64,000 bases of DNA from Stegostoma tigrinum (taxonomy: Eukaryota): the NCBI RefSeq assembly GCF_030684315.1, contig NC_081397.1, positions 14,098,421 to 14,162,420 on the forward strand. Reading direction: 5' to 3'. Of the stretch, positions 1,040-61,189 are shown one piece after another. Made by a program: the position numbers and the translations under genes. Within the stretch, counting starts at the first letter, position 1. Each line of letters opens with the position of its first letter. The notes below the pieces were generated by a model. It was not told the DNA's origin, searched no databases, and was given only the letters and a program-made list of their open reading frames with translations.

Positions 1040-1200
1040 ACCTCTGGGAGCTCATGTCAAAATCCGGAGAGTCAGCATTATACTCAGAATCATACCTTAC
1101 AGACAATGTACCAGACACCACCATCACCATCCCTGGATATGCCATGTCCCACCAGCAGGATAGACCCTGGAGAGGTGGTGGCAGGGTGGAGTTGCCCCGG
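1040..1200 (+). mobile_element. LINE (L2/CR1 group) APE endonuclease fragment
   Basis: ESYLTDNVPDTTITIPGY...DRPWRGGG. Confidence 0.6.
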
Positions 1201-1214
1201 GAGTCAACATTTAT

Positions 1215-1580
1215 TTTGGACAACAGGAGGACATAGCACGCCAAAACAACAAGACTCCTGAGACCACCAGGAATCATGGGAGCACACAAGCCCACAGCCA
1301 CTTTATGATAAACACTCAAGGATTAAAGACCGCATTCTCACAACATGCAAACCCAATGTGGTCTACAAAATACCAAGCAACGACTGCCACAACCATTACC
1401 TTAGACAGGCAGGAAGAAAACTAGCTATCAAGACACATGAACATCTGCTAGCAGCAAAACTGCACAATAAACGCTTCTTACTATCGGTACACTGACAGTG
1501 AAGGCCATCAGTTTAACTGGGACACGGTAACCATACTAGTCCAAGCCAAACATAGACACACACGGGAATTCCAAGTGGCA
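1215..1580 (+). mobile_element. Decayed Penelope-like GIY-YIG fragment
   Basis: Translates as NVVYKIPSNDCHNHY...GRKLAIKTHEH. Confidence 0.75.
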
Positions 1581-1824
1581 GTCATTGAATTGAATTGGAA
1601 GAGGGAAACGTACATTGATAGCTAACTGCTATATTGTTCATCTTGTTTTGAGGTGACCTAAAGTTTGGGCACTGAGACATCAATCTGTTTATTACCGCAT
1701 TACAACAGCTTAATGTCTGAGTGTGGCCCCTTCTGGCCTGGGTCTCTGGGACAAGGAGCCATTCACTCTGGGTCCAGCATTGTTCACACAGGGAGCGTTG
1801 TCATTTCATGTTTCTTTGATGTCA

Positions 1825-3824: not shown

Positions 3825-3845
3825 CTCACTGTGATGTTGCATCAG
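3825..3845 (+). other. Candidate 21-nt micro-exon
   Basis: TCTTTTCTTTTATTTACAG|CTCACTGTGATGTTGCATCAG|GTGGGA; same strand as, and upstream of, the ITIM exon. Confidence 0.3.
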
Positions 3846-3936
3846 GTGGGAAACACGCAAGTTATTTTGCAGTGAAAAAGCTGGCAGTTAATTTTTAATC
3901 AGCAAAGTTACGTTTTTAGCAGGTGGTTCATGTAGA

Positions 3937-5619: not shown

Positions 5620-6490
5620 CAGTGAGCATTACAGGAGCAGCAGATGGTGAAGAATGGAAATGTGATGTTGGCCTTCATAGTGAGAAGGTTCCAGTCCAGG
5701 AGCAGGGCTGTCTTGCTGAAATTGTACAGGGAGAGACCACATCCTGCTGTATTGTGTCTGCAGTCTGGGGTCTCCGTCTCTGAGGATGGATGTCCTGGCT
5801 ATGGAGGGAGTGCAGCCGAGGTTTCCCAGACTGAATCCTGGGATGGCAGGACTGAAGGATAAGGACAGACTGGATCGCTTAGGATTATATTCACTGGAGT
5901 TTAGAAGAATGAGGAGTCATCTCATAGAAACCTGTGAAATTTCAATGGGAATTAACAGGGGTAAACACAGATGTTGCTGATGGCTGGACATGGGGCTAAG
6001 GACACATGAGTCCACCCTCAGGGGCTCACAGTCTAAAGGAGATGGGGAAGGGCTGAGGGTGGGGAGAAATGTCTTCACCTAGAGGGTGGGGATCCAATGG
6101 GATTCTCTGCCACAGAAAGTGGTTGGGATCAGAGTAGTGAATGTTGTTCAAGTAGCAGCATCGAGTTCTTAGGGGCAAAATGTCTTGGACAGCCACATCA
6201 TAACATCCCAACTCCTACACTCAGTGTTGGAACTGATGAAGGCAACTGTTCCAAACTTGCCGTCCGCCTGGGACTCCACTTTATGCAACTATGTGCCTGC
6301 ACCCTTCGATCCCTCTGTTTGACAACACTCCCCAGGGCCCTACCATTAACCTGCCCTGGTTTGCCTCAGCAAAAATGCAACACCTCTATATTTGTCTAAA
6401 TTAAACTCTACCTGCCAGTCCTCGGCCCATTGGCCCAGTTGATCAAGTTCCCAATGTACTCTGAGATAACCACCTTCACTGTCCATGAGG
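5620..6490. mobile_element. CR1-like LINE fragments (+ 5620-6170, - 6175-6490)
   Basis: LDRLGLYSLEFRRMRSHLIE on +; reversed RT C-terminal piece on -. Confidence 0.75.
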
Positions 6491-6547
6491 CCACCGATTT
6501 TGCTCCTGCTCCTCATTTACTATGTTTCTGTATTGTCCTATTTTCAG

Positions 6548-6679
6548 GCTGAGCAAGCAGACCAGCAACCATCCTGCATCACATACACCACCCTGAGGCA
6601 CACAGATATGCGAGGGGATGAGGAACCAGGTCAAGGTGAAGAGGGAAATGTTTATGCCAATCTTCCGCGGACATTGTGA
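6548..6679 (+). CDS. Probable terminal coding exon of an ITIM-bearing inhibitory receptor (cytoplasmic tail)
   Basis: Pyrimidine-rich acceptor TATTGTCCTATTTTCAG| then AEQADQQPSCITYTTLRHTDMRGDEEPGQGEEGNVYANLPRTL*. ITYTTL fits the ITIM consensus and a second Tyr motif, NVYANL, lies 23 residues later. Unique sequence between LINE fragments. Confidence 0.6.
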   Translation, partial: AEQADQQPSCITYTTLRHTDMRGDEEPGQGEEGNVYANLPRTL

Positions 6680-7089
6680 GACAGCACAGAAGAATCCCTT
6701 CAATGCCTCACAAATTGATGGATAGCAATTGTTCCTTCCAGCAAATAAGGGGGAGAAGGAAGAGAGGACAGAGGAGCGTCAGGTTTCTGCAGCTGAGAAA
6801 TGGCTAAGCTTTGTTCCCATTCACTCAGCCAGACATCAACTCCAAACATGAATTTGCCTTGAGAAGCCATCGGAATAACTGTCTCTCACATAACTCTGAG
6901 TGGGCCAATCTCTTCTGCTGCAGCATGATCTGACCCTTGATGGCAGGGATTTGAGATTTTGTGCTGTCCATTCCCAACTTGAGTATCCATTTGATCTCCT
7001 GGTGAGTGTATCAGGGCAGATGAGCCAATGAATTGAATCTACTCTGCATTTATTTTTTAATTGTGGTGAGCTATTATCAGAGGTGTGAT

Positions 7090-7930
7090 TATTCCCCAGC
7101 CTGATCTTCATTACCCTCGAACTTCATCATTTTCAAACATATATCCAGCTCTCTCTTCATACCTCATATGGAATCCACCTCCACCACTCTCCCAGGCAGT
7201 GCATTCCAAATCCGAACAATGCTCCAAAGATGTTTCTCCTCATCTCACTCCTAGCTGTCTTGGTGACAAATTTGAAATTGTACCCCTGGTTACTGACATA
7301 GTGGAAACAGAGTATTCTACTTTACCCTCTCAAAATTCTTCATTATTGTGAACACCCCCATTTGTGACCCCTCTGCTCCATGGAGAATAAGCCTGGTTTC
7401 ATTAATCTTTCTTTGAACGTAAAATCCTTCATTCCTGCTGTCATTCTAGTGACACCTTTAAGCCATCTCCAGAGTGTTCTTCCTTAAATAAGGTGTCTAG
7501 AACTGAACACAAGCGTAGCCTGAGCAATGTGGTCTTAGCAATGATTTGTAGAGGCGTAGCATTACTTCCTTGCTTTGAGACTCAATGCCTCTATTTTTAA
7601 ACTCAAAGATCCTTTGAACCTGCTTCACAACTGTTTCAACTGGCCTGGCCACCTTCAGAGAACGATGCACATGAACCCCAAGATCTCTCTGTTCCAATTT
7701 TCCCTTTAAAGCTGTACCCTTAAGCTTGTATTGTTTCTTTGCATTTTTCTCAGCAAAATGCATAAGCTCATATTTTTCTGCATTGAAATTTATCTGCCAG
7801 GTCTCTGCCCATTTGGCCAACTTGTCAATGTCCCTGTGAAGTCACTCAGTATCATCCTCACAATGCACTCTTCTCCATGGCTTAGTATGATCTGTAAATT
7901 TAGAGACTTTATCCTCAATACCCAACTCCA
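7090..7930 (-). mobile_element. CR1-like LINE fragment
   Basis: KWAETWQINFNAEKYELMHF...EQRDLGVHVHRSLKV...LYKSLLRPH. Confidence 0.85.
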
Positions 7931-7939
7931 AATCATTTC

Positions 7940-9760
7940 TACAATCAATATATTTATCTATATATATCTGTCAGTTTCTCTTACGTAAACGTATGACTAT
8001 TTACCAGCCTGTACCTGTTAGTTTCTGCTGAGAATTGCAAGTGACAATATTAATCTGTTAGCGAGTTTTGAGAAGATTTGTAGCTCAGTTTGAGGTTCTG
8101 GATGTAAGTTTGCTCACTAAGCTGGAAGGTTCATTTTCAGACGTTTCGTCACCATTCTAGGTAACATCATCAGTGAGCCTACGGTGAAGCGCTGGTGTTT
8201 AGGTTTCCTTGGGTTGGTGATGTCACTTCCTGTGCCGGTGATGTCATTTCCTGTTCTTTTTCTCAAAGGGTGGTAGATGAGCTCCAAATCTCTGTTTGTT
8301 GATGGAGTTTCGGTTGGAATGACATGCTTCCAGGAATTCTTGTGCGTGTCTCTGTTTGTCTTGTCCAAGATGGATGGATGTGTTGTCCCAAAGTGGTGGC
8401 CTTCCTCATCTGTATGCAAGGATACTAGTGATCGTGGGTCATGTCTTTTGGTGGATATTTACCAACAGGTGGCGACAGACCTGACCCCACAACTGGAGAA
8501 CCGAATCACAGCCTTACTCATAAAACTTCAAAAATCTGGAGAATTAAACAAGAGACTCTTCCAAAAAATGAAACCAGATGGATCCAACACACCACGCTTC
8601 TACGGACTACCCAAAATTCACAAACCAGGAGCTCCCCTCAGACCCATAGTCTCACTACCTGGAACACCAACATACAGACTAGCCAAGGAACTACACCAAA
8701 GACTAAAACACCGAGTAGAAGACTCACGCCACTCCATTCACTCCAGCCAAGAATTCTTGAACACCATCAAAAGCACCAAGATAGAAGAGGATGAAACAAT
8801 GGTCTCCTTTGACGTAACAGCCCTGTTCACATCCATCAACATCAATCTGGCCAAAGAAACACTGACTACACTAGTCGAAGAACCAAAGACACATACACCA
8901 GACACCACCAACCTCATCAGCAAGGACAAAATCATCAAGCTCGTGGACCTATGCCTCACCACCCACTTCACTTTCAATAACAAAACCTACAGACAAACTA
9001 ACGGTACACCCATGGGATCTCCGACATCAGGGTTCTTAGCAGAGGGAGTAGTGCAGAGACTCGAACAAACAGCTCTGCCAATCATCCAACCCAAACTTTG
9101 GGTCTGCTACGTGGATGACACCTTTGTCATCACTAAACGAAACAAATTAGAGGAAACATTCAAGACCATCAATAATATCCTTCCTGATGTAAAATTCACA
9201 AAAGAGGAGGAACACAACAACAAACTGCATTCCTAGGTACCACAGTAGAGCGACCAGTTAATGGGGAACTTCAAACCAGCGTCTACAGGAAAACAACACA
9301 GACAGACCAAATACTGAACTGCCTTGTCAGTGTGTAAATGCACATATCGAAGTACACCTGTCAGTTCCTGCTGGGTGAATGTGTGGGTGCTGTTCCCAAC
9401 ATGTACCTGTGAGATTCTGCTCTGTAAATAGGAGAGTCTAGTTAACAGACTATACTTGTCAGTTTGTGCTCTGTGAAACTGGGAGTGTAGTTATCATTGT
9501 GTATGTCCGTTTTAGCTTTGAGAATGAGGGTGAAGTTATTCATCTCTCCCTGACAGTTCCTGCAATGCGAATGCATGACTAACATTAGCAGAAACCAAGA
9601 GAGACTGATAACTACAGTCACACCTTTACATTGTAGTCAATGTGTTGTCATCATTTGTGTGTTTCTGCAATACGAACAAGTGGGTGTAGTTATCAAACTG
9701 TACGTGTCAGTTTCTCCTCATGTATCAAAATGGCTAAATCTCTGGGTGTAGTTATCAATC
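7940..9760. repeat. Degenerate ~49-bp satellite array interrupted by a Penelope-like element
   Basis: Units at 7940-8058 and 9321-9760 (spacing 9441 to 9490 = 49). Confidence 0.75.
8059..9320. mobile_element. Penelope-like element with internal inversion (3' end and GIY-YIG tail on -, RT on +)
   Basis: 8457-9320 encodes RT motifs FYGLPKIHK, LRPIVS, SFDVTALFT, QTNGTPMGSP, YVDDTF. 8059-8456 is the reversed endonuclease end plus pLTR, with a hammerhead core CTGATGA...GAAACGTC (8140-8173, -). Confidence 0.9.
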
Positions 9761-13514: not shown

Positions 13515-15060
13515 TCGGCCCACGATGTTGTGCCGAACGTCTCCCCTAATCCTCATGTCTATCTAACCTCCACTCCTACCTTATGCTATCATCCATATGC
13601 CTGTCTCATAGCTGTTTAAATGCCCCGAAAGAGGCTGACTCCACTCTCCTTTCCAGAATGCATTCCACACCCCGACCACTCTCTGAGTAAAGAGCCCACC
13701 TCTGACTTCTCCCCAATATCTACCTCCACTCACTTTAACACTCTGCTCCCTCACAATAGCTACCTTCACCCGAGGAAAAAGTCTCTGGCTGTCCATTCTA
13801 TCTATACCTCTGATCATTTTGTACACCTCTATCAAGTCATCTCTCATCCTTCGTCGCTCTAAAGAGAAAAGCCCAAGGTCTCCCAACATTTCCTCATAAG
13901 ATCTTCCCTCCATTCCAGGCAACATCCTGGTAAATCTTGTCTGCACCTTTTCCAATGATTCCACATCTTTCCTGTAATGGCATGACCACAACTGGACTCA
14001 ATACTCCAGATGTGGATGAACCAGACTTTTGTATAGCTGGAGCATGACTTCATGGCTCTTGAACTCAATCCCTCTGTTAATGAAAGCTAACACAACATAC
14101 GCCTTCTAAACAACTCTATCCACCTGGCTGGTAGCTTTCAGGGAGCTGTGAACATGAACCCCAAGATCCCTCTGCTCCTCCACACTGCCAAGAAACTTTC
14201 CACTAACCCTGTATTCTGCTTTCAAGTTTGTCCTTCCAAAATGTATCATCTCACACTTTTCAAGGTTAAACTCCATTTACCAATTCTTAACCCAGCTCCG
14301 TATACCATCAATGTACTTTTGTAACCCAGAACATGATCCACCTTCGTATCGTCTGCGAACTTGCTGATGCATTCTTCCACGCCTTCAACCAAATCATTTA
14401 CAACAATCACAAATGGAAGAGAACCCAGAACAGATCCTTGTGGTACACACTCGTAATTGAACACTATATCAAATATTTTCCGTCCACTACTACCCTTTGT
14501 CATCTAAGGGTCAGCCAATTCTGAATCCAATCTGCCACATTTCCCTCTATCCCATGCCTCCTTACCCTCTGCATGAGCCTACTGTGGGGAACCTTATCAA
14601 ACGCCATACTTAAATCCATGGATACCACATCCACTGCTCTACATTCATCCACGTGTTTGGTCACCTCTTCAAAGAATTCAGTAAGGTTTGTGAAGCATGT
14701 TTTACCCCTCAGAAATCCATGCTGACTGTCCCAAATCAAACTGTGCCTTTCTAAGTGATCAGAAATCCTATCTCTCAGAGCCCTTGGCAATAATTTGCCC
14801 ACCACTGACGTTAGGCTAACTGGTCTGTAATTTCCAGGGTTATCCCGATTTCCTTTTTTGAACAAGGGATTGACGTTTGCCACTCTCCAATCTTCCAGCA
14901 CTCTACCCGTTGACAGTGAGGGCGAGGAGATCATTGCCAAGGGCCCTCCAATCTCTTCCCTCGCTTCCCACAGAATCCTTGGATAAATCCCATCAGGCCC
15001 GGGGGACTTACCTGTCTTCACCTTCCTCAAAATTCCTGGCACATCTTCCTTCCTAACATT
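13515..15060 (-). mobile_element. CR1/HER1-like LINE (RT to 3' end, disrupted)
   Basis: KSPGPDGIYPR, NYRPVSLTSVVGK, AFDKVPH, VPQGSVLG, FADDTK, LERRRMRDDLIEVYK. Confidence 0.92.
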
Positions 15061-15119
15061 GGTAGGCTAGAAGAGTTCAGACTGTTTCATACTGTTAAAA
15101 AAAAATCCTTCAGAATCCT

Positions 15120-23740: not shown

Positions 23741-24061
<321 letters not shown>

Positions 24062-24091
24062 GCAAATCGTCCCTTTTCCAGCGAACCCAAA

Positions 24092-24107
24092 GGCTCTTTT
24101 CAGAGCC
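24092..24107 (+). promoter_or_regulatory. Histone 3' stem-loop (H4)
   Basis: GGCTCTTTTCAGAGCC preceded by CCCAAA and followed by ACC. Confidence 0.97.
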
Positions 24108-24609
24108 ACCCCAACCCTCCGCCTGAGAGCGGAGACCTGAGGATGGGGAACCAGCACATAGGGCTGGTGCAGCGACTTTTAATGACGCTCCCAGGAATGA
24201 TAATTTGTTCAGTTTTGATTCTGGTAGCCGTGCCGAGGTTTTAGTGGCGTGTTCATTCCACCTGCCTGTTAGAGATGGTCAGGAAATGATTCAGAGCCCT
24301 CTCCGCGCTGACTGCAAGTTAGGTTCACAAGAAAATTTTGTGAAGCGTAAGATATAATCTTAGGCGCAGGCGCATGGGACTTTTTAATATTTTGTAAGGT
24401 CAGGCTGAAATCGGCGGGCGATTTGAAATTGACCAACTGTCATTTGAAGTTAACCAATCCAGCCTACAATAATTATTTTACTGCCTTTTCTGTCCTTCAG
24501 TGGCTGTTTCTCGGGGATTTGAGGGACGGGACTCGAACAAATCCCAGCTCTAGGGCGGGCTCTCCATCCTCTTAAATAGGCAGCGCCGCATCAAGTTCAG
24601 CATTGATAA

Positions 24610-25047
<438 letters not shown>

Positions 25048-25091
25048 ACGGAGCGTGCCCGGCCCTGTACATTCACCCCGAGAAACACAAC

Positions 25092-25107
25092 GGCTCTTTT
25101 CAGAGCC
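25092..25107 (+). promoter_or_regulatory. Histone 3' stem-loop (H3 copy 1)
   Basis: GGCTCTTTTCAGAGCC; purine-rich HDE GAGAGAGCAG at 25121. Confidence 0.97.
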
Positions 25108-25464
25108 ACTAAACTGTCCCGAGAGAGCAGCAATCGTCAGGCACTGTGGACTTCAGTTCATGTAAACGCAGAGCGTGCTATTGATGTCTCAATGCAACGG
25201 GAGTTGCAGAAACTGAATAGGTCTGTGAGATGCACGAATTCATACTACAGACGATGCAACTCGGGACAATCAGGTTTATAAATTTTCAGTAATCACAACA
25301 CATTCAAGTACTGCACTCCATATTTTATAACTTATATATTTCCAATGGAACCGCCTGTGTGCGAATTGCTTCCCGTGGCGTTTCCCCAGCTCTAACTGAA
25401 CTTGGCGGAGGAGGATGGTGGGTAACAATCGCCAAATTCAAACCCCACCACAACATACAAATGA

Positions 25465-25710
25465 CATCCCCTCCCTACCTCCCCACCTACACTCTCTCCA
25501 CCTATCTTCTTTACTCTCCATCTTCGGTCCGCCTCCCCCTCTCTCCCTATTTATTCCAGTTCCCTCCCCCCATCCCCCTCTCTGATGAAGGGTCTAGGCC
25601 CGAAACGTCAGCTTTTGTGCTCCTGCGATGCTGCTTGGCCTGCTGTGTTCATCCAGCCTCACATTTTATTAGCTTGGAATCTCCAGCATCTGCAGTTCCC
25701 ATTATCTCTG
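25465..25710 (+). mobile_element. Penelope-like pLTR fragment with hammerhead motif
   Basis: CTGATGAAGGGTCTAGGCCCGAAACGTC at 25582; TSD ATACAAATGA (25455 and 25711); empty site at ~56483 in copy 2. Confidence 0.85.
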
Positions 25711-26053
25711 ATACAAATGATTTTTGTAGTTTTGCCCAAATCTCCCACTAGTGTATTCGATCCTCTGAGGCTGGTCGGTTCTGTCTCGAATGGCCTCTTT
25801 CTGGCACCGAGCTATTCCATGTCTCTTGTTCCCTGCCACCGGATGGATGGGGATACTTTTTTGAGTCACTATTTAAAGTCGCTGTCCCGACAGCGAAACC
25901 TCCAACTTGATTCGTCCCGTTCTAGTTTTATCACTGTTAAAGCGAAAACAAAACGGACTATTTTTGCGTATTTGGAGGCCCCGGTTTGCACATAAAATCA
26001 AAATTAGTTAGCCAGCTGTGACAGTCTAGCTGCTTTTCACTGATGTTGGGAGT

Positions 26054-26069
26054 GGCTCTGAAAAGAGCC
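26054..26069 (-). promoter_or_regulatory. Histone 3' stem-loop (H2A copy 1)
   Basis: Reverse complement GGCTCTTTTCAGAGCC; downstream GAAAAGCAGCT is HDE-like. Confidence 0.97.
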
Positions 26070-26099
26070 TTTGGGTTGTCAGGTTACAGAACGGTCTCT

Positions 26100-26745
<646 letters not shown>

Positions 26746-28536
26746 ATATACCAAACAGTAAGAAGGCAAACAAAGAATAATGCTTATTTATTTGAAGTAG
26801 TTTACTTTTAGAATATACCGACATGATTCACACAATTTCAGTCATTCCCTAGCCTCCTTCCATCTGTATTTGTGATCTTGAAAGGATTGTTTCCTCGAAC
26901 TTTACAAATAAACAGAAAGAAAAAAAAACGCACGAAATCCATTCCCTGCGTAGATACTATTTTACATCAGCACCGGGCTTTTTTGATCGAATTCTACTCA
27001 TTTATTCCGTGTGTGAGTATCAGTGCTTTGGATAATATTTTTAAAATCGCCCTGCCTATAGCTGTCGGCTGCACTTCAACAATAGTTCTACGTTTGCGAT
27101 GCAAATGTTCTAGTTTCATTTCAGGTCGAAATTCTCCCGCCGACAGCAGAAAGCCTCATATCGAGTTTTCCGCAAAACCGGAGAGAACACGCGGGGAGAT
27201 CTGAAAAAAAATCCTCAGTGTGTGAACTGTTGTAAAAGACCGGCGCCAAATCATCAACCGTCTTCTTTCAGAATTTGAAAAGCCCGCCAATCTGGACAAG
27301 ACGAGGAAGACGTTTTTCACAGAATAGTGCATAAATGCTTACGATTTAATTGCCTTTTAGATTACAAATGGATGCTTCACTCCATCTCTCTTTCTCACTC
27401 CCTGACCTAATTGAATCCACCCATTTCTGATTTGAGTGGAGTTTTCCGAACAGGCAGAAACAAAATAAAACAAAGCGCCAACGTCCGCTTCTGTTTTTGT
27501 ATTTCACGTTTTAAACGCTCCCCAACATATTGATAAGGCATCAGGCAACGTTCATCCGGCTGAGCGCATTAATGGGCAGCACAGTCTTCAGACAATTTCG
27601 TAAAGTGGCCCTTATTGTGATAGATCAGGTTTCCGCTTGATCTCGGTTCATTTTGAAAGCCTCCAAGCGAAAGCAGAAAGCCCCACGTACTGCATTTTGA
27701 GAAAAGAAAATCACAAATCCCGCGTAGAAATTTAGAATTGAAATTAAACTGAAATCGCAAGATATTTCTATTCGTCGAACTCAAATAAGAGGTCATTTCA
27801 TTTTGGTTGCCACAGTTGGATTTCGGGGTTCAGAACCCACCGCGATTAGTTTGAAAAACCCTCCAGTGTACAAGAGGAGGAGGAATGAATAATTAAAATG
27901 TTCGTTTATAAGCTTAATTACATTGACGTTGCAAATGAATACTTGACACACTGTTTCTTCATCGCATCTGTCCATTTCTGCACTTGATGAGAATTTTCTG
28001 AAGTTAGGAACCAGGAAAACAACTACAAAAGCACGGCATTCTGCAACTTTTTAATTTCAATTTTTCAAGTGCACACCGAATATTGATTAAACCTTGCACA
28101 ACATCCTTTCGGATGAACGCGTTCAAACTTTAAACAACAGCTTGAAGTTGCCCTCCCCCTATTGTTCTTCATCAGACTTCAGGCACAATCGCAATTCGGC
28201 AGTTGTTCTTGTTCTTTATTATTAAAAGAAAAAAAAACAGTAGATTGTAAACTCTATTCATGGGATTAGAAGTTAATTTTGTTTCGGGGTGATCAAGTGT
28301 TAAAGAGGAACGCGAATGAAACGGAAGTTGCTAAAATATGACTCACTGGCGATAATTATGCTCGTTGCAGATACGGGGAAACGAGACAGGGTATGGCCGC
28401 AACTGAAACTAAAGGGCAGATCAGGGTCCACCCATAAACTTGTACAACGCACGTAAAGCCTAGGGACATTAATAATACATACCGAAAATATTTCGCAAAC
28501 TTAACGTGGTTCAGCCGTTTCAGAGAAGTTGTGGGT

Positions 28537-28552
28537 GGCTCTTAAAAGAGCC
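28537..28552 (-). promoter_or_regulatory. Histone 3' stem-loop (H2B copy 1)
   Basis: Reverse complement GGCTCTTTTAAGAGCC followed by ACCCA. Confidence 0.97.
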
Positions 28553-28593
28553 GTTGGGTTTTGGATGTGTTTTTCTCAGCACAATGTGGGGTC

Positions 28594-28974
28594 TCACTTG
28601 GAGCTGGTGTACTTGGTCACCGCCTTTGTACCCTCCGACACGGCGTGCTTGGCCAGCTCCCCGGGCAGCAGCAGCCGCACCGCGGTCTGGATCTCCCGGG
28701 AGCTGATGGTGCTGCGCTTGTTGTAATGGGCCAGGCGGGAAGCCTCCCCCGCGATACGCTCGAAAATATCCTTGACGAACGAGTTCATGATGCTCATCGC
28801 CTTGGAGGAGATGCCGGTGTCGGGGTGAACCTGCTTCAGCACTTTGTAGATGTAGATAGAGTAACTTTCTTTCCTGGATCGTTTCCTTTTCTTGCCGGCT
28901 TTCCCCGGCGCCTTCTTGATGATTTTCTTGGCGCCCTTCTTGGAGGCTTGCTGTGCTTTCTTCTCATCTGCCAT
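28594..28974 (-). CDS. H2B: Histone H2B (replication-dependent)
   Basis: [17 protein letters not shown]...[26 protein letters not shown]...[12 protein letters not shown] at 28974; TATA at 29027-29034; stem-loop at 28537. Confidence 0.99.
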
Positions 28975-29026
28975 ACTGACAGTCACTTTCAGACACAAAA
29001 TAAGCGAAAGCGGGCTCGGAGCTCGC

Positions 29027-29138
29027 TTTTTATAGCCTGATCGCGTCAGCAATGCTAATGAGGGATGGAGGAAAGTCTTATTCATGATTGGGTAGTTTAA
29101 AAGAATGTCAAGCATGACAGCAGCCTCTCTGTGATTGG
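29027..29138 (-). promoter_or_regulatory. H2B copy 1 promoter (TATA, octamer variant, two CCAAT boxes)
   Basis: TATAAAAA at 29027-29034; ATGCTAAT octamer variant at 29052-29059; ATTGG at 29087 and 29134. Same layout at 60523-60635. Confidence 0.8.
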
Positions 29139-29626
29139 TTAGTTTGGGACACAATGTGAATCTGTCAGGATCTGCAACGAAATGCGAGACACAAACCAAA
29201 TTTTGAACACGGATCTAACTCCTAACTCACTCGAAAATCAACTGGTTATTGTCATTTAATTATATCTGGAACACAGTATCTGTGAGATTTTAAATGTGGC
29301 AGTGTGTTTTATTCTGCTCATGACAGTCTTTTGTGCATAACATATTATTTTGTTTCATCTCTCTCTGAGTTCCACAGGGCACTTGTGTCATTGAGAGATT
29401 CAGGCTTATTGAGGGATAGTTTGTCCAATGTCTGTCAGTGTCTCCTATGTGAAAATGCGAGTGCAGTTCCTGAGATGCTGCTTGGCCTGCTGTGTTCATC
29501 CAGCCTCACATTTTATTATCTTGGAATCTCCAGCATCTGCAGTTCCCATTATCTCTGCAGTTATCTATCTGTCCCAGTCTGTTTCTGCAGTGTGAATGAT
29601 TATCACTCTCTCACAATCTGTTCCTG

Positions 29627-41599: not shown

Positions 41600-44500
41600 C
41601 AGTTGCTGTAACTGACAGAGACTGATTGATAATGACATTTATATGTTCATAAAAGCCATCCATCCCTGTCTGTTTCTGCAATGTCAATATGTGAGTTTAG
41701 TCATCAATCTGTTCATGTTAGTTTCTGCCATGTGAATGTTTGAGTGCAGTTATCAGTTTGTTGGTTTTGACAATGTGAATGTGTGAATGTAATGAGCAAT
41801 CTGTATCTGTCACTTTCTGCTGTGTGAATATTTAAACATAGGCATCAGTTTGCACCTGTCAGTTTCTTCCATGTGAAAGTAGTTATCAATCTTTGCCTGT
41901 CAGTTCAGCTTTTGTCAATATGAGAGAGTAGTTATCAAGTTTTACCTGTCAGTTTCTGCAAAGGGAATGTGAGAGCACATTTGTCAATCCATGTAGGTCA
42001 GTTGCTGCTTTTCAATGTGTGTAATTATCAATTTTTACCCATCCAATTCTGATTTGTAAAAAAAAAACTAAGATAGTTATCAAACTGTACCTGTCAGTTT
42101 TTGGTAGATGGAACTGGTATCATCATGGTTCCAAGATAATAAAATGTGAGGCTGGATGAACAGAGCAGGCCAAGCAGCATCTCAGGAGCACAAAAGCTGA
42201 CGTTTCGGGCCTAGACCCTTCATCAGAGAAGGGGATGGGGAGAGGGAACTGGAATAAATAGGGAGAGAGGAGGAGGCGGACCGAAGATGGAGAGTAAAGA
42301 AGATAGGTGGAGAGAGTGTAGGTGGGGAGGTAGGGAGGGGATAGGTCAGTCCAGGGAAGACGGACAGGTCAAGGAGGTGGGATGAGGTTAGTAGGTAGCT
42401 GGGGGTGCGGCTTGGGGCGGGAGGAAGGGATGGGTGAGAGGAAGAGCCGGTTAGGGAGGCAGAGACAGGTTGGACTGGTTTTGGGATGCAGTGGGTGGGG
42501 GGGAAGAGCTGGGCTGGTTGTGTGGTGCAGTGGGGAGAGGGGACAAACTAGGCTGGTTTAGGGATGCAGTAGGGGAAGGGGAGATTTTGAAACTGGTGAA
42601 GTCCACATTGATACCATATGGCTGCAGGGTTCCCAGGCAGAATATGAGTTGCTCTTCCTGCAACCTTCGGGTGGCATCATTGTGGCAGTGCAGGAGGCCC
42701 ATGATGGACATGTCATCTAGAGAATGGGAGGGGGAGTGGAAATGGTTTGCAACTGGGAGGTGCAGTTGTTTGTTGCGAACTGAGCGGAGGTGTTCTGCAA
42801 AGCGGTCCCCAAGTCTCTACTTGGTTTCCCCAATGTAGAGGAAGCCGCACCGGGTACAGTGGATGCAATATACCACATTGGCAGATGTGCAGGTGAACCT
42901 CTGCTTAATGTGCAATGTCATCTTGGGGCCTGGGATAGGGGTGAGGGAGGAGGTGTGGGGACAAGTGTAGCATTTCCTGCGGTTGCAGCGGAAGGTGCCG
43001 GGTGTGGTGGGTTTGGAGGGCAGTGTGGACCGAACAAGGGAGTCACGGAGAGAGTGGTCTCTCCGGAAAGCAGACAGGGGAGGGGATGGAAAAATGTCTT
43101 GGGTGGTCGGGTCGGATTGTAAATGGCGGAAGTGTCGGAGGATGATGCGTTGTATCCGGAGGTTGGTGGGGTGGTGTGTGAGAACGAGGGGGATCCTCTT
43201 GGGGCGGTTGTGGCGGGGGCGGGGTGTGAGGGATGTGTTGCGGGAAATACGGGAGACGCGGTCAAGGGCATTCTCGATCACTGTGGGGGGAAAGTTGCGG
43301 TCCTTAAAGAACTTGGACATCTGGGATGTGCGGGAGTGGAATGTCTGATCATGGGAGCAGATGCGGTGGAGGCGGAGGAATTGGGAGTAGGGGATGGAAT
43401 TTTTGCAGGAGGGTGGGTGGGAGGAGGTGTATTGGGCCTCCTGCACTGCCACAATGATGCCACCCAAAGGTTGCAGGAACAGCAACTCATATTCCGCCTG
43501 GGGACCCTGCAGCCATATGGTATCAATGTGGACTTCACCAGTTTCAAAATCTCCCCTTCCCCTACTGCATCCCTAAACCAGCCTAGTTCGTCCCCTCTCC
43601 CCACTGCACCACACAACCAGCCCAGCTCTTCCCCCCCACCCACTGCATCCCAAAACCAGTCCAACCTGTCTCTGCCTCCCTAACCGGCTCTTCCTCTCAC
43701 CCATCCCTTCCTCCCACCCCAAGCCGCACCCCCAGCTACCGACTAACCTCATCCCACCTCCTTGACCTGTCCGTCTTCCCTGGACTGACCTATCCCCTCC
43801 CTACCTCCTCACCTATACTCTCTCCACCTATCTTCTTTACTCTCCATCTTCGGTCCGCCTCCCCCTCTCTCCCTATTTATTCCAGTTCCCTCTCCCCATC
43901 CCCCTCTCTGATGAAGGGTCTAGGCCCGAAACGTCAGCTTTTGTGCTCCTGAGATGCTGCTTGGCCTGCTGTGTTCATCCAGCCTCACATTTTATTATCT
44001 TGGAATTCTCCAGCATCTGCAGTTCCCATTATCTCTCATCATGGTTCCAGTCAGTTTCTGCTATGTGCTGCCTTGAGCATATTTACTAATCTGTCACTTT
44101 CAGTTTCTCCTGTATATCTGACAGTGGAGTTACTGATCTCTACCCGTTTCTGCTTTATGAATGCGTGAAAGCATTTATCATTCTCTCCCCATCAGTTTAA
44201 GCTATGTGAACGAATGCATTTATCATTCTGTCCCTGTCAGTGTCTGTAATGAGAATATTCAAACGTGTTTGTGCAATTATTATTCTATCCCTGATAGTTT
44301 CTGCTCTGTGAATATGTGCTTCAGTTATCAAAAAATACCTGTCAGTTTCTACTTAGGGAATGTGTGAACACTGTTTTTCATTTGTACCTGTCAGCTTTGG
44401 TTTTGTGAATAATTGTCTGCAGTAATTAATCTGTACCTGCCAGAGCTTTCACGTGAAGATGTGAATATGATCATTAATCTGTCCCTCTCAGTTTCTGCTC

Positions 44501-53066: not shown

Positions 53067-53212
53067 GACAGGCAGCAGGAGCAGGGAGCTGAGGGCAGGT
53101 TGTCTCCGCGCCGTCCGCTCGCTGCCTTTAAGTTGCTCAGTGCCGCCACCAGCAGCTTCATTGCTGACCCAGTTCAGTCTGACAGAGAGAGATTCAGCGC
53201 AGAGTTCCCGAC

Positions 53213-53821
53213 ATGAGCGACAGTGCAGCCGCCGAAACGGCTCCTCCAGCCTCCGCTAGCACCAAACCCAAGTCTCCCAAGAAGAAGAAGGCGGCGGCTC
53301 CCAGGAAGAAACCAGCCGGTCCCGGGTTGGGCGAGCGGATTGTGAAGATTGTCGGGGAGAACAGCGATCGGAAGGGGACGTCTCTGGTCGCTATAAAGAA
53401 GGCGCTGCAGAGAAGCGGGGTCAATGTGGAGAAGCAAAATGCACAGATCAGGATGGCTGCCAAGAGGTGCCTGGCGAAAGGCTCCCTGGTTCTGGTGAAG
53501 GGCCAGGGCGTCTCCGGCTCCTTCAAACTCGCAAAGAATCCAGTCAAGGCAAGAGTGGGAAAGAAGGCGAGGCCAGCAGCAGCCGTGAAGAAAACAACGA
53601 GCAAGAAGGTGGCAGCGAAAAAATCCCCAGCCAAGAAAGCGGGCGGCAAGAAGGCAGCAACGCCAAAGAAAGCGGCGAAGAAAGCAGCGCCGAAGAAAAA
53701 GACTCCCGTGAAGAACGTGATAAAGACCAAGAGCCCCAAGGCCGCAAAGCCGGCCCCGAAATCGAGGAAACCGAAGGCCAAGCCCAAAGCGAAAGTGACC
53801 AAGAAAGCAGCAAAGAAATGA
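53213..53821 (+). CDS. H1: Linker histone H1
   Basis: 202 aa, intronless: globular domain (...DRKGTSLVAIKKAL...KGSLVLVKGQGVSGSFKL) and a Lys/Ala/Pro-rich tail with S/TPxK motifs. H1 box AAACACA at 53060; stem-loop at 53858. Confidence 0.97.
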   Translation: MSDSAAAETAPPASASTKPKSPKKKKAAAPRKKPAGPGLGERIVKIVGENSDRKGTSLVAIKKALQRSGVNVEKQNAQIRMAAKRCLAKGSLVLVKGQGVSGSFKLAKNPVKARVGKKARPAAAVKKTTSKKVAAKKSPAKKAGGKKAATPKKAAKKAAPKKKTPVKNVIKTKSPKAAKPAPKSRKPKAKPKAKVTKKAAKK

Positions 53822-53857
53822 AGCAGTCCGTGCAACGTGTAACGACCTGAACCCAAA

Positions 53858-53873
53858 GGCTCTTCTCAGAGCC
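53858..53873 (+). promoter_or_regulatory. Histone 3' stem-loop (H1)
   Basis: GGCTCTTCTCAGAGCC then ACCAC; HDE GAGAGAGCTG at 53888. Confidence 0.96.
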
Positions 53874-54221
53874 ACCACATCTTTCAGGAGAGAGCTGAGC
53901 CCGGATCAAATGATCCCTGTCCTAGCTCCGAGTGCAGGAATAAATTAGACACTAATTTATGTGAATAACCGTTCCGTATTTACCCACCGGATTTACACTC
54001 AGCCCCTCTTCCATACTCTACAATATGTGAGTGTGAGGTCCTGCTCACATGGACCATAGGCTCTAGTGCTTTGTCAGTTCATGTCAGTCTGCTTTTCACA
54101 CATGTAGGGAGAGAGTCTCAAAGAGACTAACACGCCCTGAAACTCCTCTTCACCACACAATCCCCATCAAATGATTTTGTCTCATTCAACTGGGGGAATA
54201 GAAACTGACGTGGAAATTGAA

Positions 54222-54951
54222 GCAAGACAAAATTTGAGGCTGGATGAACACAGCAGGCCCAGCAGCATCTCAGGAGCACGAAAGCTGACGTTTTGGGCCT
54301 AGACCCTTCATCAGAGAGGGGGATGGGGAGAGGGAACTGGAATAAATAGGGAGAGAGGGGGAGGCGGACCGAAGATGGAGAGAAAAGAAGATAGGTGGAG
54401 AGGAGAGTACAGGTGGGGAGGTAGGGAGGGGAAAGGTCAGTCCAGGGAAGACGGACAGGTCAAGGATGTGGGATGAGGTTAGTAAGTAGGAGATGGAGGT
54501 GCGGCTTGGTGTGGGAAGAAGGGATGGGTGAGAGGAAGAACAGGTTAGGGAGGCAGAGACAGGTTGGACTGGTTTTGGGATACAGTGGGTGGAGGGAAGA
54601 GCTGGGCTGGTGGTGTGGTGCAGTGGGGGGAGGGAAGAACTGGAATGGTTTTGGGATGCAGTTGGGGAAGGGGAGATTTTGAAGCTGGTATAGCCCACAT
54701 TGATAATGGAAGCAGAGGTAATGGGAACTGCAGATGTTGGAGAATTCCAAGATCATAAAATGTGAGGCTGGATGAACACAGCAGGCCAAGCATCATCTCG
54801 GGAGCACAAAAGCTGACGTTTCGGGCCTAGACCCTTCATCAGAGAGGGCGAAGGGTCTAGGCCCGAAACGTCAGCTTTTGTGCTCCCGAGATGCTGCTTG
54901 GCCTGCTGTGTTCATCCAGCCTCACATTTTATTATCTTGATAATGGAAGCA
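54222..54951 (-). mobile_element. Penelope-like 3' fragment plus adjoining pLTR hairpin insertion
   Basis: 54222-54700 matches the 42131 arm; 54715-54936 is bounded by TSD TTGATAATGGAAGCA and has 90-bp inverted arms. Confidence 0.88.
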
Positions 54952-55637
54952 ACCGTGTTGTCTTGTTAAGAAAGGCCGGATCATGGGCGTTCAATTGTAT
55001 CGCAACTGCTTAGAAAAAAATCCTGTTTTTGTCTGCTTCGAACATGAAGCTCGAGACCGCAGTTTTTTTTTCCCGAAAGTTGTGTTCACTGCCGTTCTGG
55101 AGAATAGTTTTATTTACAGATCTAGTTGGGGGCTGGAGTTAACATATATTGCTGTATTTGTATTTCATTAACAGTCACAGGAATGATATTTCGTTCAGTT
55201 TTGATTCTGGGACAACTGTGAAAGTTTTAATTTACTTTCCATCTGCCTGTTGCAGGAAGCAATGCCAAACGCCCTCCCCCTTTCCTCACGCCTGTTACAG
55301 ACAGATGAGGCAATCCTGTCGTCCTGTCTCCGCTGATGTAGATTTTATTCAAAAAACTTAGTTTGCAAAGTACACGATTTGATCGGAGTCGGAGTTTATT
55401 TTCCTTTTAAATATTTACCTTAAACTCAGGATCGCGAGGGTAAAATCGGCGGGCTTTTTGGAAGTGACCAACTGTCATTTCAATTTAAACCAAAAAATAT
55501 TTTTCTGCCTTTTCAGAACCTTCCGGAGCTGTTTCTCATGGGGTTGAGGGACGGGACTCTAACAAATCCCAGCTCGAGGGCGAGCTCTCCATTCCCTTAA
55601 ATAGGCAGCGCCGCCACAGGTTCAGCATTGAGAGTAG

Positions 55638-56072
<435 letters not shown>

Positions 56073-56117
56073 ACGGAACGTGCTTGGGGCCTGCACATTC
56101 ACCCCGAGAAACACAAC

Positions 56118-56133
56118 GGCTCTTTTCAGAGCC
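56118..56133 (+). promoter_or_regulatory. Histone 3' stem-loop (H3 copy 2)
   Basis: GGCTCTTTTCAGAGCC; the HDE position is occupied by (AG)n. Confidence 0.97.
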
Positions 56134-56851
56134 ACTACACTATCCAGAGAGAGAGAGAGAGAGAGAACAGTAATCATTAGACACGATGGACTGTAGTTAA
56201 TATAAACCCACAGCATGCCATTGATGTTATGTCTCAATGTCACCGCTGTTACAGAAACTTAGTGCATCTCTCAGGCCCAATAGTTCCCCCGAGTTGTGAA
56301 ACAGGTTTATAAGTGCTCAGTAATCACAACACAGTTCAAGCACTGTACCTAACATTTTATAAATTTCCGATTCAAACGCCTTTGCTTGCCAATTGCTTCC
56401 CTTGGCGTTTCCCCAGCTGCAACTGAAGTTGACGAATGAGGATGTTGGGAAACAGTGGCCAATTCGAAAAGCTCACCAAAATATACAAACGATTTTTATA
56501 TTGCTGATCGTGCAATTGAAATTTTGCCCAATCTCCCACGAGTGTATTCATTCGATCCTCTGAGGAGGCTCGGTTTAGTCTCGAACGGCCCCTTTCTTGC
56601 GGGGAGTTAGCGCATGTCTTTTGTTCCCTGTCGGCATAGTGATAGGGAAACCGCTGTGAGTTACTATTTAAAGTCGCTGTCCCTGCAGTAAAACTTTATT
56701 ACACCCTTCCGGCTGCTGTTCTAGTTTTCTTTGGGTTAAGGCAAAAAGGAAACGGATATTGTTGCGCATTTACAGTCCCGTGTTTGCACATAAAATTAAA
56801 ATAAACCAACCAGCAGTGACAGTCTAGCTGCTTTTCACTGATGTTGTGGGT

Positions 56852-56867
56852 GGCTCTTAAAAGAGCC
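56852..56867 (-). promoter_or_regulatory. Histone 3' stem-loop (H2A copy 2)
   Basis: Reverse complement GGCTCTTTTAAGAGCC followed by ACCCA. Confidence 0.97.
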
Positions 56868-56897
56868 TTTGGGTTGTCAGGTTACAGAACGGTCTCT

Positions 56898-57350
<453 letters not shown>

Positions 57351-58523
57351 TTAAGCCTTCGGGAGGAATGGGGGTGCGGCCATTGCTGATTGGTCACATT
57401 GTTCAGTATCTCCTAATGTCGTTTCAATGCCCAATCAGATATCTGCTTCCCTCACCAATCCCGAGAGGGCCCGGAAAATCCCGGCGCCAAATCATCAACC
57501 GCTTTCTTTCAAACTCGAAAAGCCCGCCAATAGTTTCAAAACGGGTAGAAGTTTTACGAAGAAGAATGCGTTCATATTCCAGATAATTTACTTTTAGAAT
57601 ACACCTGTATACTTCACACAATCTCTCTCTGATTCCCAGGCCTAAGTGAATCGATGTGATTATGATTTTGCTTTTTACCCTGATCCTTAAGAATAAACAG
57701 ATGGCAGAAAAAGAGCCCGGCGTAAATTGCTCTGAACAGATGCATTTTATTTCACATCAGCACCCGGATACATTGATAAAAGTATCACACAGCTATTTCT
57801 TTGCCGTTGAGCGCAATACTGCTTTCAACAATATTTTACAATCGCGCTCCCTATTGCACAAGATCAACAATATTTCTACTTTTGCGATGCCAGTCCGCCA
57901 GCTGTTCTGCTTTCATCTCGGTTCACTGAAATTTTCCCACCGACAGCAGAAAGCCTCATTTATTGCTTTCTGCAAAACCCGGGGAGATTTGAAAATAAAA
58001 CAAAATGCCTCGGCGCGGCAACCGTAGGAAAATACCGGCGCCAAATCATCAACCGTTTTCTTTCCGATTTGAAAAGCCCGCCAATATGGGCAATACGAGG
58101 AAGACGTTTTACATGAATGCGTATGATTTAATTTCCTTTTAGATTACAAATTGATCCTTGACATAACCTCTCTCGTTCTCATTCAAAACATCAGCGTCTT
58201 CCGAAAATTTTGTGATTATTGTGTGAGATCAGACTTCCCTGTTAATCTCGGTTCATTTTGAAAGACTCTACCCGACAACGGGGAACCCCACAGACTGCAT
58301 TCTGAAAATAAATTCACGTAGAGATTTGGAAATTGAAAAACACAAATCGCACGATACTTCTGTTCGTATGTCTCAAATACGGGCTTATTGGTTTTGGTTA
58401 CCACGAGAGAGAGTTGGGGTCGTTACCCACAGGGACAAAACCCTACAACGTGTACGAAATAGGAAAAAAAAACTAAGTTTTACAAAGAGGAATGAATAAT
58501 TTAAATTTTCGCCGAACTAAGTT

Positions 58524-59265
58524 AGAACATAGAACATAACAGCACAGTACAGACCCTTCGGCCCTCGATGTTGTGCCGACCTGTCATACCGATCTGAAGC
58601 CCATCTAACCTACACTATTCCATGTACGTCCATATGCTTATCCAAAGACGATTTAAAGATACCTAAAGCTGGAGAATCTACTACCGTTGCAGGCAAAGCG
58701 TTCCATTCCCTTACTACTCTGAGTAAAGAAACTACCTCTGACATCTGTCCTGTATCTTTCACCCCTCAATTTAAAGCTATGCCCCCTCGTGCTCGCTGTC
58801 ACCATCCTATGAAAAAGGCTCTCCCTATCCACCCTATCTAATCCTCTGATTATTTTATATGTTTCAATTCAGTCACCTCTCAACCACCTTCTCTGTAATG
58901 AAAACAGCCTCAAGTCCCTCAGCCTTTCCTCGTAAGACGTTCCCTCCATACCAGGCAACATCCCAGTAAATCTCTGCACCCTTTCCTCAGCTTCCACATC
59001 CTCTCTTATAATGCGGTGATCAGAACTGTGCACAATACTCCAAGTGCGACCGCACCAGAGTTTTGTACTGCTTCACCATAACCTCTTGGTTCCGGAACTC
59101 GATCCCTCTATTAATAAAAGCTAAAACACTGTATGCCTTCTTAACAGCCCTGTCAACCTGGGTGGCAACTTTCAAGGATCTGTATACATGGACACCGAGA
59201 TCTCTCTGCTCATCTACACTGCCATGAATCTTACCATAAGCCCAGTACTTTGCCTTCCGGTTCAT
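58524..59265 (-). mobile_element. Young CR1-like LINE 3' fragment inserted in the copy-2 H2A-H2B spacer
   Basis: Tail AGAACATAGAACATA; EQRDLGVHVYRSLKVATQVDRAVKKAY; absent from the copy 1 spacer. Confidence 0.9.
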
Positions 59266-60031
59266 TTTCATATTGCAAGTGCACCCTGAAATATTTATTT
59301 AAAACTCACATAACGTTCCTGCGGGTGAGAACGGTGAAACTTCAGTTCAAAGTTGCCATCCCTATTGTCGTTGATCAGACTTCAGCCAGTTTCACACCTG
59401 AGATGGCAATCCAGCAGCTATACTAGCTTTATCTCAGTTCATTTTGAAAGCCTCTTATCGACAGCTGAGAGCCTCATTTACAGTGTTCTGCAAAAATTAG
59501 ACGACGTCTCAGTGGCGTTTTGAAAATTTAATTTAAGAAAAGAACAAATAAATTTCAAAATCTATTCGTGGGACGACAACAGTTACTTTTCTTTCCGGGA
59601 GTGAAACTCGTGTTTCATACCCCACGGGGCACTGTACCTTCTGCCCTGATCAAGGGTTAAAGAATAACTGGAAAATACAGAATTTGCTGAAAAGTGACTC
59701 GGTGTCGATAAATATGCTCTCTATACAGGCTGGGAAAAGAGACTGGGAAATACGCAACCGACAATAAAGGGCAGAGGGTCTGGGATCAAACGAAATTATT
59801 TTTATAATTAAAAACAAAGCTTAGCGACATTCATTATCCAGACCCAGAATCAATTGTAAAGCTAAAACTTCATTTGAAAAGAAGGGTCTCGCCCCGAAAC
59901 GTCAATTTACCTGCTTCTCTGATGCTGTTTGGTTTGCTGTGTTCATCCAGCTCCACATCTTGTCGTCTCAGATTCTCCAGCATCGGCTATCCAAGTTAAT
60001 ACGGTTCAGCTGTTTCAGAGAAGTTGTGGGT

Positions 60032-60047
60032 GGCTCTTAAAAGAGCC
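60032..60047 (-). promoter_or_regulatory. Histone 3' stem-loop (H2B copy 2)
   Basis: Reverse complement GGCTCTTTTAAGAGCC followed by ACCCA; downstream GAAACAGCTG. Confidence 0.97.
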
Positions 60048-60089
60048 TTTGGGTTTTGGATGTGTGTTTTTTCAACACAATGTGGGATC

Positions 60090-60470
60090 TCACTTGGAGC
60101 TGGTGTACTTGGTCACCGCCTTTGTACCCTCCGACACGGCGTGCTTGGCCAGCTCCCCGGGCAGCAGCAGCCGCACCGCGGTCTGGATCTCCCGGGAGCT
60201 GATGGTGCTGCGCTTGTTGTAATGGGCCAGGCGGGAAGCCTCCCCCGCGATACGCTCGAAAATATCCTTGACGAAAGAGTTCATGATGCTCATCGCCTTG
60301 GAGGAGATGCCGGTGTCGGGGTGAACCTGCTTCATCACTTTGTAGATGTAGATAGAGTAACTTTCTTTCCTGGATCGTTTCCTTTTCTTGCCGGCTTTCC
60401 CCGGCGCCTTCTTGATGATTTTCTTGGCGCCCTTCTTGGAAGGTTGCTGCGCTTTCTTCTCATCCGCCAT
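60090..60470 (-). CDS. H2B: Histone H2B (replication-dependent)
   Basis: [17 protein letters not shown]...[18 protein letters not shown]...KYTSSK; stem-loop at 60032-60047. Confidence 0.99.
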
Positions 60471-61189
60471 ACTGACAGTCACTTTCAGACACAAAATAAG
60501 CGAAAGCAGGCTCGGAGCTCGCTTTTTATAGCCTGACCGCGTCAGCAATGCTAATGAGGGATGAGGGAAAGTCTTGTTCCTGATTGGGTAGTTTACAAGA
60601 ATGTCAGACCATGTGATTAGCCTTTCTGTGATTGGTTAGTGTGAAACACAAAGTGGATCTGTTCGGATCTACAACGAAATATGAAACACAAACCGAAATT
60701 TTGTACACGGACCAAATTCCTAGCTCCCTTGCAGTTGAACTTGTTCCTGTCATCCACTAACATTTTGAACACTACCTCCGAGATTTTAATTGTGACAGGG
60801 TGTTTTATTCTGCTCATGGTAATCTTTTGTGAGTAAAATGTTACCTTGTTTCATCACTAGCTGAGATTTCCTTATTAAGCTGTGGGGAGTATTGTATTGT
60901 ATTGTTAAGACATTCGGGTTTATTGAGCGACAATTTGCCAAATATCTGTCATTCTCTGCATTGTGGAAATGGGAGTGCGGTTCTCGATCTGTTCCTGTCT
61001 GTTGAGGCAGTGTGAATGATGATTATTCTCTCATAATCAGTCCCCGTCATACAGTCCGAGAGATGTACAGGGTCCACCTCGTCCATGGAGAGCACATATC
61101 CGAGATTAATCTGGTTCCATTTACTAGCATTTGGTACATATCCCACGAAACACTTCCTATTCATTTACTCATCCATGTGCTTTTTAAAT

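Follow-up and report, generated by a model that had tools for sequence, protein, structure and literature searches.

The described receptors closest to the locus reported here are the mammalian FCRL3/4/5 and Fc-gamma-RI, the inhibitory XFL proteins of Xenopus and, as regards the spacing of tail tyrosines, PECAM-1 and the catfish receptor LITR 1.1b. According to the accessible parts of the respective papers, a second leader exon of 21 bp is the rule in mammals (PMC7940838), only a fraction of the Xenopus XFL genes comply with it (PMC2413239), the tyrosine pairs of PECAM-1 and LITR 1.1b enclose 22 intervening residues, and Y-x-N is a Grb2-binding motif (both PMC4810170). Cartilaginous fishes are said to lack FCRL molecules in the available portions of a 2014 survey (PMC4016189) and of a 2026 review (PMC13337447), the latter of which raises the question of how antibody is linked to cells in sharks. 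A 2024 single-cell study, likewise available in part, names fcrl3, fcrl5 and an fcgr1a-like gene for bamboo shark B cells (PMC11372145). In the text portions returned by our literature search, which left subscription journals mostly outside its reach, no description of the shark family or of the amplicon treated below was found.

Here, we analysed a window of 64,000 nucleotides from Stegostoma tigrinum, in which an initial annotation had read a short open frame as the hidden terminal exon of a tandem-ITIM inhibitory receptor. Our analysis makes it very probable that this exon ends a shark FCRL-like gene which has lost its Ig, TM and upstream tail exons at this site by deletion, and that it is a likely non-functional passenger of a histone-linked amplicon.

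The terminal exon, its motifs and its copies

The letters were read correctly: an AG acceptor at 6546-6547 stands behind a pyrimidine tract, the frame 6548-6676 runs for 43 codons into TGA, and ITYTTL and NVYANL lie where they had been placed, with their tyrosines 23 residues apart (Table 1). For the intact gene described below, the RefSeq model reads its terminal exon in this same phase-0 frame. The label 'tandem ITIM' suits one motif of the two. Under the consensus quoted in the initial annotation and applied by us as well, I/V/L/S-x-Y-x-x-L/V, ITYTTL qualifies, whereas NVYANL is not a consensus ITIM because it carries N at -2. Position -2 of motif 1 is I or V in all 15 family tails; motif 2 has N at -2 in 14 of them, with C in the other, and N at +2 in all 15. 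The tandem ITIMs of PECAM-1 and LITR 1.1b have the same 22-residue gap, and differ in that the second motif of the shark exon is Y-x-N.

The 43-residue peptide gave no match against Pfam, and the motif pair by itself is within chance: two loose pairs occur in the window, against an average of 0.6 over 40 first-order Markov resamples, of which 18 held at least one pair and six held two. A chance open frame with chance motifs would be in keeping with these numbers, but it is refuted by homology, the exon being 95% identical to the final exon of a gene that is annotated and has conserved relatives, so that it can be dismissed for practical purposes. It is this homology, and not the motif pair, which makes the exon real.

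The island holding the exon had been taken for unique sequence; a search with 6500-6760 instead returned 40 matches in the same genome, and the resulting counts are lower bounds, as 40 of 46 candidates were scored. At least 29 of them match at 98-100% on both strands of C56, the contig of the window, between 9.1 and 15.2 Mb. The lesser matches comprise three at 93-95% (two on C62 and one at C56 5.5 Mb), one at 77% on C53 and seven short ones (67 bp). With stops in the C62 and C53 copies and a frameshift in the 5.5 Mb copy, these are plainly dead. The C53 copy was rejected as a parent since it has lost the acceptor, carries an in-frame stop and has no + strand Ig exon in the 75 kb upstream; two Ig C2-type exons, which presumably resemble CD22/Siglec domains, lie 22-30 kb from it on the - strand (C53:16673730-16680914). 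The 29 high-identity copies examined divide into two intact genes and 27 orphans, and the tail exons c2-c4 are present within 9.5 kb in two copies and absent in 27.

Table 1 Features of the window discussed in the text (positions count from the first nucleotide of the window)
Feature	Position	Strand	Remarks
Deletion junction	1180..1592	+	~17.6 kb of gene B missing (C56:12481885-12499488), a stretch that holds the five Ig exons, the TM exon and four exons of the tail
Penultimate exon remnant of gene B	3825..3856	+	32 nt, phase 1/0; donor GC, GT in the intact gene
Low-divergence island around the exon	6284..6811	+	13/528 differences from intact B vs 142/881 in the intron next to it; probably a tract of gene conversion
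Pyrimidine tract and AG acceptor	6520..6547	+	phase 0; last 14 nt identical in 29/29 copies examined
Terminal coding exon of FCRL-like gene B, orphan copy	6548..6679	+	43 codons and TGA; 41/43 aa and 128/132 nt as in the last exon of XP_059498323 (C56:12504326-12504457)
Motif 1, ITYTTL	6578..6595	+	fits ITIM consensus; ITYATL in the intact gene
Motif 2, NVYANL	6647..6664	+	non-consensus for ITIM; Y-x-N (Grb2-type) site; Tyr kept in the window copy
Histone gene group H4, H3, H2A, H2B	23750..29214		same amplified unit; more histone genes at ~53200-60600

The parent gene and its sister in the amplicon

Which gene does the exon come from? The route to the parent led through two exon copies 12.9 kb downstream of a distant intact Ig exon, where five Ig exons are present. 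This parent, gene B, is modelled in RefSeq as XP_059498323 ('Fc receptor-like protein 4', 653 aa), with five Ig domains, a TM segment and five tail tyrosines. This protein is encoded, with one residue different, by 14 exons on C56:12477933-12504454, and a second complete copy lies at C56 12.72-12.74 Mb, both loci being 1.4-1.6 Mb from the window. RefSeq lists their products as 'Fc receptor-like protein 4/2/6' isoforms (XP_059498322-326 and XP_059497893-897). In isoform X4 (C56:12491425-12493872) the TM exon is skipped with the tail still in frame, and in isoform X6 Ig5 is skipped. B-type copies at C56 3.02 and 4.71 Mb were rejected as further intact genes, only Ig5 to c4 being found in 40 kb each. 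Compared with gene B, the window copy has the same terminal exon, acceptor, phase and 23-residue spacing, and differs in having neither Ig nor TM exons, in the loss of four tail exons and in its GC penultimate donor. The four bases by which the terminal exon of the window type departs from that of intact B are at exon positions 6, 40, 45 and 102.

The ectodomain of gene B points to Fc receptors. The best PDB matches of the whole protein were FCRL5 (E 4e-51), FCRL4 and Fc-gamma-RI. Searched singly, three of four domains had Fc-gamma-RI or FCRL chains as best match: Ig2 matched Fc-gamma-RI 87-167, Ig3 matched FCRL5, Fc-gamma-RI 170-255 and FCRLA, and Ig4 matched FCRL5. For Ig1, which has the place of an N-terminal D1-type domain, none of the 11 weak PDB matches at E<=0.01 was an Fc receptor. 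The Ig domain types follow the FcR order under the D-type labels that we assume for them. A likeness to PECAM-1 and Siglecs had been proposed as well. The tyrosine spacing is indeed that of PECAM-1, but the ectodomain is nearest to FCRL/Fc-gamma-RI, and at E<=1e-8 the parent has 13 PDB matches with no PECAM-1 chain among them, nor did the searches with single domains return one, in a database that holds only part of PECAM-1.

The leader of gene B is spread over two coding exons of 34 nt and 30 nt, its TM segment is uncharged, and its tail lies on separate exons with YxxL/I/V motifs, as in the inhibitory class. The five motifs are FDYAEI, TVYSSV, LVYSVI, ITYATL and NVYANL, of which we take TVYSSV to fit the ITSM pattern. 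In its split leader, phase-1 Ig exons, uncharged TM and multi-exon YxxL/I/V tail, gene B is alike to the inhibitory XFL TM2 type of Xenopus, as far as that type is described in the accessible part of PMC2413239. It differs from mammalian FCRL genes in the second leader exon, which has 30 nt rather than 21 bp, and for this reason we file it as FCRL-like and not as a strict member. Judged by its sequence, gene B is an FCRL-like, annotated but uncharacterised shark receptor.

Relatives of gene B, labelled 'PECAM-like' or 'FCRL', exist in Hemiscyllium, Chiloscyllium, Mustelus and Heptranchias; these names are database labels only. Both tyrosines and their spacing of 23 are conserved, as had been expected, in all five B-type proteins compared, which come from four genera and comprise the parent and its relatives from Hemiscyllium, Chiloscyllium and Mustelus; in A-type tails (see below) the spacing is 20. 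The Heptranchias model has the ectodomain in common with gene B, and the tail is absent from its record. The idea of an uncharacterised cartilaginous-fish family holds in that a shark family with relatives exists, and fails in that the gene was already modelled. Gene B is not wholly new, given the RefSeq FCRL names and the accessible part of PMC11372145.

In the initial annotation, the exon ended an intact inhibitory receptor with ectodomain and TM exons left of the window. An Ig exon resembling those of FCRL and a TM exon are in fact present 17-18 kb upstream on the + strand; the Ig exon, 18 kb upstream of the 6548 exon and flanked by phase-1 splice sites, has FCRL5 as its best PDB match and is 99% identical to Stegostoma tigrinum RefSeq models named FCRL3, FCRL5 or PECAM-like. 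However, they belong to a paralogue, gene A, with relatives in Rhincodon, Chiloscyllium and Hemiscyllium, and are followed by its own last exon, ending 16 kb before the window exon; as partners of the 6548 exon they were rejected on this ground. Gene B's Ig and TM exons were found nowhere in the 168 kb upstream of the exon. Of that proposal, what stands is a terminal exon with tyrosine motifs from an Ig-superfamily receptor of a cartilaginous fish. With gene B's own exons deleted, and an assembly error unlikely (26 units have the same junction), an intact receptor at this site is highly improbable.

Paralogue A shares tail layout and amplicon with gene B, its last exon being 45% identical to the 6548 exon. 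The Ig5 domain of gene A has FCRL5 as best match, and the A-type final motif is YENI, YMNI or YANI. Gene A lies 18-28 kb upstream of the B remnant on the same strand in most units, and is complete in most (the full check covering one neighbour), whereas B is a remnant. In the neighbouring unit (C56:13941135-13963000), all of its exons are present, including its own two-tyrosine last exon. The window's gene A is broken, with one Ig exon, the TM exon, an out-of-phase last exon and no leader. Its homology to the complete neighbour starts ~190 nt upstream of the last Ig exon; no further A Ig exon was found between it and the gene of the neighbouring unit, 130 kb off. Tail exons A1-A4 are absent, so that a phase-1 donor is opposite a phase-0 acceptor. 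An A-type gene with nine Ig domains lies at C53 16.3 Mb.

The two orphan exons might alternatively serve as a tail of the upstream gene A, its phase-1 donor joining the B penultimate exon to form a chimeric receptor. The exon phases are compatible and gene A has the position and strand just described, but complete A copies carry penultimate and terminal exons of their own, AATAAA signals follow the last exon of A, and the window's A lacks a leader and retains just one Ig exon. Moreover, the B tail ends none of the A models examined (15 of 18 listed main-cluster members and other A models). We consider such a chimera very unlikely. Most of the 15 listed RefSeq models in the main A cluster end after the last Ig or TM exon, and RefSeq annotation seems to miss the tails of gene A.

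The amplicon itself is marked by histone genes. Five Histone3 stem-loops were found in the window with Rfam, which gave no matches other than histone. Over 36.9 kb, the window unit shares 98.9% identity with one at 10.1 Mb. The histone groups at 23750-29214 and 53183-60635 are partly duplicated (81-91% alike over 0.9-1.7 kb), and the H3 gene at 24637 encodes Val for Ala in the KAARK motif. Retroelement reverse-transcriptase-like open frames lie at 8277-9233 (+), 42454-43572 (-), 14503-15066 (-), 5632-5916 (-) and 7500-7841 (-); we take them to be Penelope-like and CR1/L2-like. A possible link between the human FCGR1 and HIST2 duplications was considered and set aside, as our literature search returned nothing that bears on it.

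A shared deletion and the state of the orphan copies

A little beyond the left edge of the window, at C56:14095851 and 14097170, diverged leader exons of gene B are kept. When the window unit is aligned to intact B, the alignment passes through these exons, jumps by ~17.6 kb and comes back before the penultimate exon. The right-hand breakpoint is common to 26 of the 27 orphans and to the 5.5 Mb copy, which points to a single event older than the split of subfamilies 8-9% apart in their introns; the same junction in 26 units with this intron divergence is also what makes an assembly error unlikely. No direct repeat was found at the junction. To be a functional receptor gene, the locus would need ectodomain and TM exons of its own that lie upstream and are in phase, and these are missing here: the nearest gene B TM exon lies 1.37 Mb from the window, and of the genome-wide B-type matches, two of 22 for the TM exon and two of 13 for Ig4 fall into the 9-15.6 Mb array, in each case both at the intact loci.

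A second array at C56 0.3-5.7 Mb holds 20 B-type TM exons, whose linked Ig5 exons mostly carry stops. At 4.35 Mb, the last exon is cut after ~20 nt and followed by the 3' UTR, which matches a skip of 6563-6776 in one DNA-like run. The debris of gene B is thus mirror-imaged, with heads without tails in this second array and tails without heads in the array of the window.

Among the orphans, the second tyrosine is changed to Ser in 20 of 27 and stops occur in two, while an open frame with both tyrosines is kept in six, the window copy included. Six of seven variant sites are nonsynonymous or nonsense, as under neutrality (99:30 nonsynonymous:synonymous sites, P = 1.0), and hence show no sign of protein constraint, at a sample of only seven sites. 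The penultimate donor, scored in 26 orphans, is GT in 12, GC in 10 (window included) and CT in four; no orphan combines a GT donor with both tyrosines. The leader remnant of the window is identical to the intact leader at 14 of 22 positions and less hydrophobic, and the pyrimidine tract of leader exon 2 is replaced by an A run.

Around the terminal exon, the picture is that of a low-divergence island, which departs from intact B by 2.5% compared to 16% in the intron (P = 5e-18). Across 10 distant orphans, divergence over 10 kb is lowest in the region of the exon (0.5-3.4% per 150-nt bin vs up to 14.7%); some non-coding bins are likewise low (2.5-4%). Repeat-derived intron makes up 216 nt of the island, and the C62 copies are nearer to B in the intron and farther from it in the exon. 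Both observations favour gene conversion, and conversion with the intact gene is, from these comparisons, the likely source of the island; residual selection may act on the exon region.

When both remnants of the leader are joined to the penultimate and the terminal exon, they give a continuous frame of 75 codons without a stop. The remnant could therefore be imagined to give a short transcript of these four exons and a TM-less peptide of 75 residues with tyrosine motifs, acting as decoy or adaptor for SH2 proteins. Apart from the open join, the island and the intact acceptors speak for it, and there are precedents in a Xenopus XFL cDNA without TM but with tail, recorded in the accessible part of PMC2413239, and in isoform X4 of gene B. 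Against it stand the GC donor, the A run and the altered leader of the window copy, as well as the lack of protein-level constraint among orphans. No such protein occurred among three matches in 1.84 billion representatives, a weak point as members beneath the 50% clusters are hidden. Among contigs from four of 13 sequencing runs, one from a relative, presumed to be RNA and stemming from one study (16 differences), starts exactly at 6548 with the preceding 24 nt uncovered, a weak hint at use of the acceptor in the relative's orthologue that does not enter our weighing; a contig from another organism runs unspliced across the 6548 acceptor. We regard the short peptide as very improbable. The same low probability applies to its extension, according to which the amplified units produce such a peptide as a multicopy decoy or adaptor, and the leftover exons stay in frame and are homogenised for this reason; the Tyr-to-Ser change in most copies would drop its Grb2-type site.

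Proposed history and meaning of the locus

Under the preferred reading, that of a last exon left behind by a deletion, a tandem pair of receptor genes A and B would have been duplicated, and one copy of B would then have lost 17.6 kb, once. Amplification of the deleted unit, along with its histone genes and gene A, would have followed and given at least 27 units; at a later time, gene conversion would have homogenised the region of the exon with the intact gene. By its gene structure, intact B encodes a type I membrane protein that has five Ig domains, a TM segment free of charges and five tail tyrosines. By analogy with established receptor biology, a Src-family kinase would phosphorylate the tail upon ligand binding, the ITIM-type motifs would bind SHP-1/SHP-2, the final Y-x-N would bind Grb2, and activation of the leukocyte, likely a B cell, would be damped. 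With 22 residues between the tyrosines, as in PECAM-1 and LITR 1.1b, the pair may also bind tandem SH2 domains.

Taken by itself, the exon probably belongs to the ordinary debris that an immune gene array with birth-and-death evolution leaves behind, and its value is that of a pointer to the parent gene. Two sister genes have met opposite fates in one amplicon, A being multiplied and B cut to its tail. Present in two copies and shark-wide, the receptor gene B combines Fc-gamma-RI/FCRL-like domains with a tail of the inhibitory type, which makes it a direct candidate for binding of IgM, IgW or IgNAR.
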